Origin: an uncultured delta proteobacterium | GTDB lineage: Bacteria; Desulfobacterota; Binatia; UBA9968 | Assembly (NCBI GenBank): GCA_963771465.1 | Contig: CAVYTU010000014.1 | Span: forward strand, 1,056,001-1,120,000 | Length of the DNA stretch: 64,000 bases | Direction: 5' to 3' | Part shown: piece by piece, positions 38,308-42,911 of the stretch | How the letters are laid out: every line of letters starts with the position of its first letter | How positions within the stretch are numbered: position 1 is the first letter of the stretch | The notes under the pieces: generated by a model | The model's input: the letters and a program-made list of their open reading frames with translations, nothing else | Database searches by the model: none | Told to the model about the DNA's origin: nothing | Program-made: the position numbers and the translations under genes

Positions 38308-38847
38308 ATGATCGGAAAACTATCGGCTGGGATTGCCGGTTTGTGCCTATTGGTTGGCTGTTCGATGGCCGCGCCGGGAACGCGGGCGAGCGCCGCACTG
38401 AAAGAAGATGAAGATAAGGATGGCAAGACCATTGGCACGGCAACGTTAAGGGAACAATCGGGTGGCGTGCTGGTGCTCGTGCGCGTGGAGCCCAAAGGAC
38501 TAACGCCGGGTTTACACGCCGTGCATATTCACGCGGTCGGCAAATGCGACGCGCCGGCGTTCACTAGCGCGGCGGGTCACTTCAATCCGTCGGGGAAAAA
38601 ACATGGATCTAAGAGTGCTGAAGGCGCTCACGCCGGCGATATGCCGAATATGCTGGTGACCAAAGACGGTTCAGGCCGCTTTGAAGTTTTGGCCGACGGT
38701 ATCACGCTCCGCGCCGGACCGCTGTCGGTGTTCGACACCGACGGTAGCGCGCTGGTCATTCATGTAGGGGTGGACGATTATTTAACCGACCCTACCGGCA
38801 ATGCCGGCGATCGCGCCGCCTGTGGTTTGATCGTCGCGAGCAATTAG
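38308..38847 (+). CDS. sodC: Cu/Zn superoxide dismutase, lipoprotein
   Basis: Lipobox LVGC, HAVHIH, GHFNP, HAGDMPN, ALVIH, GNAGDRAACG. Confidence 0.92.
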   Translation: MIGKLSAGIAGLCLLVGCSMAAPGTRASAALKEDEDKDGKTIGTATLREQSGGVLVLVRVEPKGLTPGLHAVHIHAVGKCDAPAFTSAAGHFNPSGKKHGSKSAEGAHAGDMPNMLVTKDGSGRFEVLADGITLRAGPLSVFDTDGSALVIHVGVDDYLTDPTGNAGDRAACGLIVASN

Positions 38848-39602
38848 ATTCTCGATTCAAGGTAGTGCAGCCGAGCTCGACCGTGAGCTAGGCTAGCTTC
38901 GGCCTGCCGAATCCGTTCGACGGTTCCAAGATCCTGCCAGAAACCGTCGAAGCAAAATCCATAGAGCGCTTCGCCGGCGAGCAGCATTTGCGGATAGGTC
39001 TTCTGGGTCGTGCTGAATTTTTCACCGGCGCCTTGGGCGGCCATGTAAGCGAAGATCTTCGGCTCGATAATCTGCACGCCGGTGAACATGAGTTTGCGCA
39101 GCGGTCCGGCTGGCTGGGCGGCAATCTTGCTATTGAGGAAGCGATGGATTCTGCCGTCGTCATCGATGTCCATGGAGCCGTATTGATCGGCCATTTCATC
39201 CGGCCGAAGCACCAACGTTACGGCGGCCTTCTTTCGCTCATGGAAGGCAATCAGCTCGGCGAGATTGAGATCGATGAGCGCATCGGTATTAATGACGATG
39301 AAGCCGCCGTCGTGGAGAAACGATTTGGCTTTCAGCAAGCCGCCGCCGGTGTCCAGCAACTCTACTTCTTTGGAATAACTGATTCTGACACCGAGCTGCG
39401 CGCCGTCGCCGAGATGGCTCTCGATCTGGTCACCGAATTGATGCAGGTTGATGACGATGTCGCGAATGTCGTAATGGCGCAGCAATAGGAGCGCATATTC
39501 GATCATCGGCCGGCCGGCCACCGGCACCAGCGCTTTTGGTTTGTCGTCGGTGATTGGCCTCAAGCGCGTCCCTTGGCCCGCGGCCAGAATCATCGCTTTC
39601 AC
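38844..39602 (-). CDS. murU: Nucleotidyltransferase, MurU-like (MurNAc-alpha-1-phosphate uridylyltransferase)
   Basis: KAMILAAGQGTRLRPIT...PKAL, LDTGGGL, WQDLGT; coupled to the amgK-like gene. Confidence 0.75.
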   Translation of the reverse strand: MKAMILAAGQGTRLRPITDDKPKALVPVAGRPMIEYALLLLRHYDIRDIVINLHQFGDQIESHLGDGAQLGVRISYSKEVELLDTGGGLLKAKSFLHDGGFIVINTDALIDLNLAELIAFHERKKAAVTLVLRPDEMADQYGSMDIDDDGRIHRFLNSKIAAQPAGPLRKLMFTGVQIIEPKIFAYMAAQGAGEKFSTTQKTYPQMLLAGEALYGFCFDGFWQDLGTVERIRQAEASLAHGRARLHYLESRI

Positions 39603-40675
39603 AGCATCGCCTCGAAGTGCTCGAGCAGTAAGGGTCGGATTGATTGGGTTTGCGCGGTCTCTGCCAAGTTACGCTGCAAACGCCGCACGGTGGGCGGCAC
39701 GAACTTCATATAGCCCGGCTTCCCTTTGACGATATCGAGATAGTAAAAACGGCCGACAACTTTTAAGTCCCGTTGAATCGCCGAGAGCCGATAGATGTCG
39801 CTAAACTGGTCAAAATCCGCATGCTGTTTTTCCAGCTCGCACTTACGCTCGAAGAAGTAACGCACGAGTCGGGCCTCGATATCAGGCTGAATCACGCTGT
39901 CGGTGATGCGATCGTTCAATAACGAAGCAAGGTCGTATTGCGCCGGCGCCAACAGCGCGTCTTGGAAATCGATGACGCGCACGGTGTTCTCGTGGATCAT
40001 GAGATTCCAGCTATGATAGTCGCGATGGTTCAAATAGACGGGTTGGCGCTCGAGAGTCGCCGCGATTTCGCTGAAAACTTTTCGCAGTGCGTCGGTGCTG
40101 ACCTTGGCGATTTTTCCGCCCGGACGTTTTTCCAATCCCCACTCGATGAAGTGCTCGAACTCCCACATGTAGAGTGAAGCGTCGAAGCGCTGTTGAAAGG
40201 CGATACATCGATCGTCGCGCGCCGCCGTGCCGCGGAATTGCAGGTTGAGTAACTCGTCGAGCGCTTTTCGATACCAGACGATCACTTCGCTTTCAGCTAA
40301 ACCCTGCACTCTGTCCCACAACGCGGTGTCACCCAAGTCTTCGAGAAAGAGCAAGCCATCACTTTCCCACTGGCCGAAGAGTTTGGGCACGTTGACGCCG
40401 ATGGCCTCCAGAAAGCGATGCACATTTAAGAACGGTAGTTCTTGCGGGCCGTCTTTGAAGATCGCCAGCTCTTCGCTGGAAAGCGGCAGGGCGCTGCCCG
40501 CCGGCAGTTCCATGACGATCATCGTGGGCGGCGCGCCGGCGCCGCTCAAACGGGCGCGGTAGTAACGCCGGCTCGAGGCGTCGCCGGCGAGCGGCGCCAG
40601 TGACGTGAGCGATGCGCCGGGGCCAAACGCAGCGAGAACTTTGTCGGCGATGCGCTGAGTGATCGGATCAGTCAA
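39599..40675 (-). CDS. amgK: APH-family sugar kinase, AmgK-like
   Basis: LAGDASSRRYYR, LEDLGD, HRDYHSWNLM, IDFQDA, YDLASLL, QRDLKVVG. Confidence 0.8.
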   Translation of the reverse strand: MTDPITQRIADKVLAAFGPGASLTSLAPLAGDASSRRYYRARLSGAGAPPTMIVMELPAGSALPLSSEELAIFKDGPQELPFLNVHRFLEAIGVNVPKLFGQWESDGLLFLEDLGDTALWDRVQGLAESEVIVWYRKALDELLNLQFRGTAARDDRCIAFQQRFDASLYMWEFEHFIEWGLEKRPGGKIAKVSTDALRKVFSEIAATLERQPVYLNHRDYHSWNLMIHENTVRVIDFQDALLAPAQYDLASLLNDRITDSVIQPDIEARLVRYFFERKCELEKQHADFDQFSDIYRLSAIQRDLKVVGRFYYLDIVKGKPGYMKFVPPTVRRLQRNLAETAQTQSIRPLLLEHFEAML

Positions 40676-40732: not shown

Positions 40733-40771
40733 CGTGAAGTGCCGGCGACCGCCGGTGCGTTAGACTTCTCA
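40733..40771 (-). promoter_or_regulatory. Candidate bacterial SECIS element
   Basis: Minus strand: TGA GAAGT CTAACGCA CCGGC GGTC GCCGG C ACTTC. Upper stem CCGGC/GCCGG with a GGUC loop starting 18 nt after UGA; lower stem GAAGU/ACUUC. Confidence 0.75.
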
Positions 40772-40984
40772 CGTGCCGCCGAAACCGACCGTGATCTTGC
40801 CGGCGTCGACGATGACCGGAATCTTGCGCCGGCCGTTGGTTAACTTGACCATGCGCTCGAGGCCGTCTTCGTCTTTTAGCACGTTGATATATTCGAATGG
40901 GATCTTGCGCCGGGAGAAGTCGGCGCGGGCCGCCGAAGTGTACTGGCAAAGATCCTGTCCGAATATGAGAACTTTTTCGTCCAT
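40760..40984 (-). CDS. Glutaredoxin-like selenoprotein ending GFGGT-U-E-V-stop (UXX-star type), 74 aa
   Basis: Grx/NrdH-like features (CQYT, EYINV, RKIPVIV, GF). TGA at 40771-40769 is followed by GAA GTC TAA and a SECIS-like hairpin. Confidence 0.8.
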
Positions 40985-41121
40985 GAGTCGATTCGCCTCG
41001 CGCCGTTCAAGGTTTGCCGCAGCTAAAAAATAAGCAGCCGGGGGCTAAATTGCAAGTGAGTCTACCCCTATGTTACTTTCGTGAGAATTTATTCAACCGG
41101 TTTACCCGTGGAGAGGAATTT

Positions 41122-42039
41122 GTGACGATCCGCACTGCCATCGCTCAGATCAACCCAAAGCTTGGCGACCTCCAAGCGAACCTTGCGCTGTACGAAGCGA
41201 AAATTCGCCAGGGAATCGAACATCGCGCCGAGCTGCTGCTGTTTCCCGAGTTGAGCCTGACCGGTTACTTTCTGCGCGATACCGTACCCAACGTGGCGCT
41301 GACGCTCGATTCAGTCGAAATGACCGCGCTCAAAAGATTGAGCCGCGAACTGCCCTTCGTCGCCGGGCTGGTCGAGGAAAGCGCCGATCACCGCTTTTTT
41401 AATTCTGCGGTCTATTTCGAGGACGGCGAGATTCGCCACGTGCATCGGAAAGTTTATTTGCCGACCTATGGGATGTTCGACGAGCAGCGCTATTTCGCCA
41501 GAGGTGACCGGGTGCGTGCCTTCGATTCCAAGTTTGGCCGCTTGGTGCTGCTCATCTGCGAGGATCTCTGGCACCCATCGACGATCTATCTGGCGGCGCT
41601 CGATGGCGCGTTGGCGGTGATCTGTCCGTCGTCGAGTCCGCTCCGCGGTGTCGTCGATGACCAGGTCCAAGACGACAACGCGCGCTACTGGGAGATGATC
41701 AACCGGGCTTATGCCGAGACTTATAGTTTGTTCATGCTCTACGCCAACCGCTGTGGCTTTGAAGATGGCGTCGGCTTTTGGGGCGGGTCGGAGATCGTCG
41801 ATCCTTTTGGCCAGCGGCTGGCCAAAGCGAAATATTACGACGAGGATTTTATCGTCAGCGAAGTCGCCTTCCAAGCGGTGCGGCGCAAGCGGACGATGTC
41901 GCCATTATTGCGCGACGAAGATATGGATCTGACGATCAACGAGCTAATGCGCATTCGCGAGCGGCCGGCGGCGACCAAGGGGGTTCAAAAGTTCAAAAGT
42001 TCAAGGGCTCAAGGTTTCCGCAAACCGAAGAAGCGATAA
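41122..42039 (+). CDS. Nitrilase-family C-N hydrolase, probable glutaminase subunit of NAD synthetase
   Basis: [44 protein letters not shown] (E-K-C triad); directly upstream of nadE. Confidence 0.88.
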
Positions 42040-42089
42040 CGATCGCGCATCGAACGAATTGCCGCGAGCGACTCAGCTTGCACTCTCCC

Positions 42090-42911
42090 ATGATCCAAAT
42101 TCCCACCAACACTACTTTGTTGCGCGAGATTCTTACCGCGTTCATTCGTAACGAGGTGCACAAGACCGGCCTTAAGCGCGTGGTCATCGGTTTGTCCGGC
42201 GGCGTCGATTCGGCGCTGAGCGCAATGCTCGCCGCAGAGGCCCTCGGGCCGAAAAACGTCTTGGGTATTTTAATGCCGTACAAAAGCTCCAATCCAGACA
42301 GCCAGGAGCATGCTGAGCTGGTCGCGCAACAAAGCGGCATTGAAACTCTGCTGGTGGAAATCACGCCGCAGATTGACGCCTATTTTGCCAAGTTTGCGGA
42401 CGCGGATGCGCGCCGGCGCGGCAATAAGATGGCGCGCGAGCGAATGACGATTCTCTACGATCACTCGGCGCGCTGGAACGCGTTGGTGTTGGGTACAAGC
42501 AATAAGACCGAGCTGCTGCTGGGCTACGGTACGCTCTACGGCGACATGGCTTCAGCGATCAATCCAATGGGTGATCTCTATAAAACTCAGGTGTGGGCGC
42601 TGGCCGAAGCGGTCGGCGTGCCGCCCGCTATCGTGCAAAAAGACCCGTCCGCCGATCTTTGGGTCGGCCAGACCGATGAAGGCGAGTTGGGGTTTACCTA
42701 TCGTGAAGTCGACAAATTGCTCTTCTTAATGGTCGATCAGCGCTACACCCGGGCGGAGCTGATCGCCGCTGGCTTTCCCGAACGCTTTGTCGACGAAGTC
42801 GCGCTCGGCATTATGAATTCGCAATTCAAACGGCGTCTGCCGGTCATCGCCAAGGTGTCGCAGCGCACGATTGACCGTGATTTTCGCTATTCCAGAGACT
42901 GGGGCAAATGA
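42090..42911 (+). CDS. nadE: NAD+ synthetase (single-domain)
   Basis: [44 protein letters not shown]. Confidence 0.95.

Follow-up and report, generated by a model that had tools for sequence, protein, structure and literature searches.

The minus-strand gene at positions 40984 to 40760 of the window (the whole stretch of 64,000 nucleotides that was analysed) very probably encodes a 74-residue selenoprotein of UXX-star selenoprotein family 1. Judging from the homologous loci, the in-frame UGA at codon 72 (40771-40769, minus strand), three residues before the real end of the protein, is almost certainly read as selenocysteine. The gene's existence is not news: the family already has a curated model and an entry in a 2026 review (PMC13188914), and the window holds an ordinary member of it in the Cys13 form. 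The result matters chiefly for annotation: standard gene callers end the product at the UGA and call it 'glutaredoxin 3', and the residue likeliest to carry the chemistry is lost.

The reading frame is plain from the sequence and its translation. On the minus strand, the ATG at 40984-40982 starts a frame of 71 codons with the C-terminus GFGGT. This frame is closed by the TGA, which is followed by GAA GTC (40768-40763) and TAA (40762-40760), so that the U-X-X-stop layout (TGA GAA GTC TAA, 40771-40760) is present, as described in the sequence-only reading of this DNA. The complete gene (40984..40760) comprises 74 codons and the TAA, and its predicted product has Cys13 in the N-terminal motif CQYT, and Sec72, Glu73 and Val74 at the other end; the assignment is supported by NCBIfam and Pfam scores and by an AlphaFold model. 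Because the first position is occupied by Cys (CQYT), the window copy is a one-Sec variant (Cys13, Sec72), which differs from the two Sec residues given for UXX-star family 1 in the table of the review.

Family membership and conserved codons

The 74-residue read-through product scores 104.1 bits with the NCBIfam model NF041114, 'UXX-star selenoprotein family 1' (cut-off 72), with residues 5-74 aligned to profile positions 1-70, Sec column included, and the protein can therefore be assigned to a known family. The cut-off is also exceeded for NF041212, 'Uxx-star family glutaredoxin-like (seleno)protein' (89.5 bits versus 66), and for the Pfam Glutaredoxin model PF00462 (35.6 bits versus 22.9). 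The two NCBIfam matches agree with the earlier proposal of a UXX-star-type product of 74 residues with CQYT and a near-terminal Sec. The scores with the models of UXX-star families 2 and 3 and of the HUGP/GUXX-star fusion, NF041211, NF047338 and NF045501 (60.0, 54.3 and 55.2 bits), are below the respective cut-offs of 100, 97 and 325, and the protein is therefore no member of those sub-families. Three more familiar identities were considered and rejected, namely Grx3/GrxC (TIGR02181, 28.9 bits versus a cut-off of 90, the motif being CQYT and not CxxC/CPYC), NrdH (26.3 bits versus 85.75) and YruB (37.6 bits versus 88.55).

With the other members of UXX-star family 1, the protein shares its length, the G-F-G-G-[ST]-U-x-x-stop end, the x-x-T motif and the position of the SECIS. 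The glutaredoxin-like fold and the Sec three residues from the end are common also to UXX-star families 2 and 3 and to the HUGP/GUXX-star fusion. Classical glutaredoxins and NrdH/YruB-type proteins are similar in the fold and in the position of the N-terminal nucleophile; compared with them, the window protein has CxxT instead of CxxC, is devoid of the C-terminal helix and has an extra, Sec-bearing tail. In the review (PMC13188914), the relevant entry reads 'Distant Grx-like protein 1', with the motif UxxT and 2 Sec; UXX-star family 1 is placed there among the predicted selenoproteins and credited to Zhang & Gladyshev 2008, while its source for UXX-star family 2 and for the fusion forms is Haft & Tolstoy 2025. 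Zhang & Gladyshev 2008 do not use the words 'Distant Grx-like' in their main text, and the family entry may be located in the supplementary tables of that paper.

A match above the cut-off is found in 36 of 41 related genomes. The first set of homologues consists of 30 loci from related genomes, and a scan of named genomes gave 25 more, six of them identical to loci of the first set, resulting in 49 distinct loci (one of these, L037, comes from a genome flagged as unpublished, and no statement rests on it). Codon 72 is TGA in all 49 loci and TAA or TAG in none. It is followed in every locus by two sense codons and, at codon 75, a stop (TAG in 30, TAA in 10 and TGA in 9). The sequence-only reading had proposed to align homologues for a conserved XX-stop, which is thus invariable here, and had named homologues with TAA or TAG in place of the TGA as evidence against it; there are none in this set.

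Codon 13 shows a different behaviour. It is TGA in 23 and Cys in 26 of the 49 loci, a ratio biased towards Cys because the named-genome scan back-translates, and so finds, Cys codons only, leaving UxxT forms outside its reach. Among the 30 related-genome loci, there are 23 with Sec and seven with Cys, the window being one of the seven. Forms with one Sec and forms with two thus coexist among close relatives. The invariant columns of the alignment include C/U13, T16, P56, G67, F68, G70 and U72.

An exchange between TGA and Cys at position 72, which had also been suggested as a check, is found at a greater evolutionary distance. Cys at this position occurs in none of the 49 close loci (none of the 25 confirmed loci of the named-genome scan among them) and in none of the 120 database relatives listed. 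A true Cys is aligned to Sec72 in seven distant database proteins, four of them ending in C-x-x, which were found when 1.84 billion representatives were searched with a profile. The NF041212 cut-off is exceeded by four of the seven, and that of NF041114 by another one, P0137.

Of the 120 database relatives listed, 115 end exactly one residue before the UGA, and gene callers therefore truncate the protein. Among these listed relatives, one source mostly uses the name 'glutaredoxin 3', and two NCBI records say UXX-star. In some public gene calls of family members (P0094, P0108, P0111, P0128, P0132 and others), both UGA codons are read as Trp, as under a TGA=Trp code, which gives the spurious motifs 'W-P-Y-T' and 'G-G-T-W' and, in some cases, long read-through tails.

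The hairpin after the stop codon

The putative SECIS is a small stem-loop at 40755..40742 (minus strand), in which CCGGC (40755-40751) pairs with GCCGG (40746-40742) and the five base pairs close a GGUC loop (40750-40747). The distance from the UGA to the loop is exactly 18 nt. The whole of this upper stem-loop is located 3' of the true stop TAA; it falls in the 3' untranslated region because the UGA is merely three codons from the end of the gene. The locus is a clear case of a bacterial SECIS that follows the real end of the coding sequence. In the minimum free energy (MFE) fold, the hairpin is extended by a lower stem formed by GAAGU (40768-40764) and ACUUC (40740-40736), spanning 40768..40736 in total. 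Both stems and the 18-nt spacing had been described in the sequence-only reading and are present in the sequence.

The spacing had been compared there with the SECIS of E. coli fdhF, and the E. coli K-12 sequence indeed reads UGA, 18 nt, GGUC. The two elements differ in their placement, the fdhF SECIS being translated, in the middle of the gene, and the window SECIS following the true stop. They differ also in the stem, which in the window has five uninterrupted base pairs and no extra U, in contrast to the fdhF 5' arm, which shows one. The fdhF element has a bulged U, of which the window hairpin is devoid.

Taken as a single sequence, the hairpin is not exceptional. Its folding energy is unremarkable (MFE z-score of -0.17 versus shuffles, for the window sequence alone), and a loose rule (loop starting with GG 15-19 nt after a TGA, loop of 3-5 nt, stem of at least 5 bp) is satisfied at 16 of the 1990 TGA trinucleotides on both strands of the 64-kb window. 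Only at 40771, among the 16 sites, is the TGA preceded by a long open frame (91 codons) and followed by a stop two codons further on. As for the other 15, at 11 of them the open frames are at most 53 codons on both sides, at two the upstream frames are short (51 and 6 codons) and the downstream ones longer (167 and 277 codons), and at the remaining two a short upstream frame is followed by a stop within 0-2 codons. A search of Rfam with E values up to 10 returns no SECIS family at the hairpin, and one chance sRNA match of 19.2 bits.

The hairpin carries weight because it is conserved and covarying in the homologues. In the first set, the stem is 4 bp or longer in all 30 loci (5 bp or longer in 29), and the loop begins with GG at a distance of 15-19 nt from the UGA, the distance being 18 nt in 17 loci. 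The pairs, counted with the invariant GG of the loop as anchor, are C-G (28) and A-U (2) at stem position 1, G-C (16), G-U (6) and A-U (8) at position 2, G-C (22) and C-G (8) at position 3, and C-G (21), G-C (8) and one mismatch at position 5. Compensatory changes on both sides of the stem are therefore seen at positions 1, 2, 3 and 5 across the 30 loci, in a count that leans slightly towards structure, as the loop length that maximises pairing is selected. When the 30 SECIS regions are aligned with MAFFT, RNAalifold predicts zero pairs because the gaps fall out of register. A strict hairpin rule is passed by 45 of the 49 distinct loci; of the four that fail it, one forms a hairpin of 8 bp closed by another loop, one forms a hairpin of 5 bp in which the loop is non-GG, one has a weak hairpin, and one has, as judged by eye, the same stem with an AGUC loop. 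The lower stem behaves otherwise, with a mean longest pairing of the post-UGA codons to the 3' flank of 4.67 in 48 loci, versus 4.44 with shuffled 3' flanks. Of the hairpin proposed earlier, the upper stem is thus conserved, and the lower stem GAAGU/ACUUC is incidental.

These data bear on the simplest alternative, according to which the UGA is a plain stop, the product is a monothiol glutaredoxin-like protein of 71 residues, and the hairpin is an unrelated element of transcript stability or attenuation in front of the AmgK-like gene that follows. The public gene calls, 115 of the 120 listed, agree with such a product, and the ordinary folding energy is compatible with it. A plain stop does not account, however, for a codon that all 49 loci keep as TGA and never exchange for TAA or TAG, always with exactly two sense codons before the next stop, or for the Cys aligned with it in distant relatives; nor does it explain why 23 loci have another in-frame TGA where the active-site Cys is otherwise located. 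The stem is not followed by a T run, and the distance of the hairpin from the UGA is kept even in loci in which the AmgK-like gene is missing. Termination at codon 72 can accordingly be regarded as very unlikely.

Decoding of the UGA by SelB through a hairpin placed after the stop is, on the comparative evidence, strongly supported. In such a scheme, the ribosome would reach the UGA at codon 72 of the mRNA, SelB with Sec-tRNA(Sec) would bind the small hairpin with its GGUC loop 18 nt downstream, selenocysteine would be inserted, and Glu and Val would be added before translation ends at the UAA.

A second, small hairpin is observed in the coding region of the 23 Sec13 relatives, in the stretch that corresponds to 40948-40912 (minus strand) of the window. 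It has a GU-containing loop and is located ~18-20 nt downstream of the codon-13 TGA. In the window copy, which has Cys13, this stretch has diverged. The Cys13 relative L033 retains the sequence of the hairpin stretch of its Sec13 neighbours (compared among L028-L057), which suggests a recent Sec-to-Cys switch at codon 13 in that locus.

Selenocysteine machinery of the genome

The genome (6.9 Mb in 19 contigs, 99.4% complete) contains the genes for selenocysteine synthesis and insertion that the sequence-only reading had proposed to look for. The matches to selA (614 bits), selB (358.6 bits) and selD (376 bits) are all above the cut-offs, and the three genes are direct neighbours on the contig that also contains the window; a tRNA-Sec with a TCA anticodon (UCA in the tRNA) scores 76.7 bits, likewise above its cut-off. 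The selD gene (L011, contig 14: 200711-201637) matches its model with one in-frame TGA, and selenophosphate synthetase is itself a predicted selenoprotein here. Among the 41 relatives, selB is above the cut-off in 36, and in all 21 of the high-quality genomes.

In the assembly, selB is frameshifted. Profile positions 2-28 are matched in one frame and positions 28-580 in the next, with one extra base after codon ~27, just past the P-loop segment (contig 14, ~198,800; L001 1490-1503). This split match is the basis for another reading, in which a gene inherited as a selenoprotein gene is found in an organism with broken Sec decoding, and only the 71-residue form would be made. Contigs from other data sets argue against it. 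Three other DNA data sets, from three studies, have near-identical contigs without one base at L001 position 1498 (they differ by at most one other letter where they overlap the selB stretch), and one RNA data set has a contig without one base at position 1500, which differs from the selB stretch in seven letters. Either deletion restores the selB frame. Single-base indels are common assembly errors, selD keeps its in-frame TGA, further glutaredoxin-like frames with a TGA in a UxxC motif exist in the genome, and the UXX-star SECIS is intact. With these points taken together, we read the extra base as an assembly error or a private mutation and not as the loss of the trait; a loss of Sec decoding in this genome appears very unlikely. 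We infer that the UGA is decoded as selenocysteine in the source cell.

Two other frames with an internal TGA were observed in the same genome. The first (L024 1489-1719, contig 7) is a glutaredoxin/NrdH-like frame of 77 codons, in which the TGA is the first residue of U-G-P-C; it is a candidate UxxC selenoprotein, the best NCBIfam match of which is YruB (69.9 bits, below the cut-off). The second (L025 1477-2199, contig 14) has 241 codons, with a glutaredoxin-like N-terminal domain that contains a TGA in U-S-S-C and is fused to a longer C-terminal region, and it is a candidate fused selenoprotein.

Fold, proposed working and gene neighbourhood

The AlphaFold model (AF2, built on 29 sequences) has a mean pLDDT of 81.3 and consists of strands 5-9, 30-34, 57-60 and 63-66 and helices 14-25 and 39-48, in the order strand-helix-strand-helix-strand-strand, without a final helix. 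The predicted structure is a minimal glutaredoxin fold without the last helix. The best PDB matches in Foldseek are glutaredoxins, together with NrdH-like or small thioredoxin-like proteins (3ic4, 1h75 and 3zit; TM 0.6-0.75), and the profile match in the PDB is Clostridium cGrx1 (E of 2.6e-5). By analogy with these proteins, Pro56 would occupy the cis-Pro position of the fold. The C-terminal tail is the least confident part of the model, with residues 71-74 averaging a pLDDT of 61.

The usual CxxC of the fold is replaced by CxxT in the window protein and by UxxT in most relatives. Sec72, carried by the flexible tail that follows the invariant G-F-G-G turn, may supply the missing resolving residue, in which case the active form would cycle via an intramolecular Cys13-Sec72 selenenylsulfide, or via a diselenide in the two-Sec relatives. 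A couple of residue 13 and Sec72 is proposed because the second Cys of CxxC is an invariant Thr, because both residues are invariant as Cys or Sec, and because the turn before the tail would match the Gly-Gly segment that lies next to the active site in glutaredoxins. On this indirect evidence, we put such a redox couple at about even odds. A similar arrangement is the Gly-Cys-Sec-Gly tail of animal thioredoxin reductase, in which a redox-active Sec is located on a flexible C-terminal tail, a few residues before its end, and the SECIS is not part of the coding region. As that enzyme has an unrelated fold and an unrelated decoding system, the likeness is an analogy only.

The main rival to the redox couple leaves the Sec protein as it is and takes Cys13 and Sec72 for metal or metalloid ligands, in a carrier or in detoxification. 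Chemically, a thiol and a selenol on a flexible tail suit soft metals, and a metal-ligand idea for the family is cited in the review (PMC13188914). At variance with this role, the flanks contain AmgK-like, MurU-like, NAD synthase and Cu/Zn superoxide dismutase genes and no metal-resistance gene, and the fold and the motif position match those of thiol oxidoreductases. A ligand role thus seems possible but rather unlikely.

The gene is followed, in the same orientation, 84 nt after its TAA and with no terminator-like site in the gap, by an AmgK-like kinase gene (40675..39599, minus strand), the end of which is overlapped by a gene for a MurU-like sugar-1-phosphate nucleotidyltransferase (39602..38844, minus strand). 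The sequence-only reading had placed the selenoprotein gene directly upstream of, and co-oriented with, amgK-murU. The co-orientation holds. The gene names do not, as AmgK and MurU are the best NCBIfam matches of the two neighbours and yet remain below the curated equivalog cut-offs (105.4 bits versus 550 and 168.6 bits versus 250, respectively). The adjacency is also limited in extent: an AmgK-like gene is present downstream in 34 of the 49 loci, sometimes with 1.3-1.8 kb inserted, and is missing from the flanks in 15, which include one whole clade. In this clade the neighbours vary (ABC permease, isochorismatase-like and HlyD-like, by eye). A functional link to AmgK/MurU as a general property was therefore rejected, the gene being absent from 15 of 49 flanks. 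We regard the adjacency as a gene order inherited within one lineage, whose records bear the label Candidatus Binatia or Deltaproteobacteria and are MAGs recovered from samples of the soil type.

A bolder version of the redox proposal makes residue 72 the indispensable catalytic atom and has the gene couple selenium-dependent redox chemistry to the recycling of cell-wall sugars. The first part is suggested because, within family 1, Sec72 is never replaced by Cys, whereas position 13 is freely Sec or Cys, and the second because in this soil lineage the gene is conserved as the first one before the AmgK-like/MurU-like pair. In this combined form we consider it improbable.

Beyond the MurU-like gene there is a gene for a Cu/Zn superoxide dismutase. 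On the other side, the upstream, divergent neighbour is a NAD synthase that appears as two consecutive frames (41014-42911, plus strand), through a genuine split or perhaps through another single-base assembly error, with the glutaminase-like (CN-hydrolase) frame at 41014-42039 and the synthetase from ~42060; the ORF list also contains a long, overlapping frame at 41778-42911 (plus strand).
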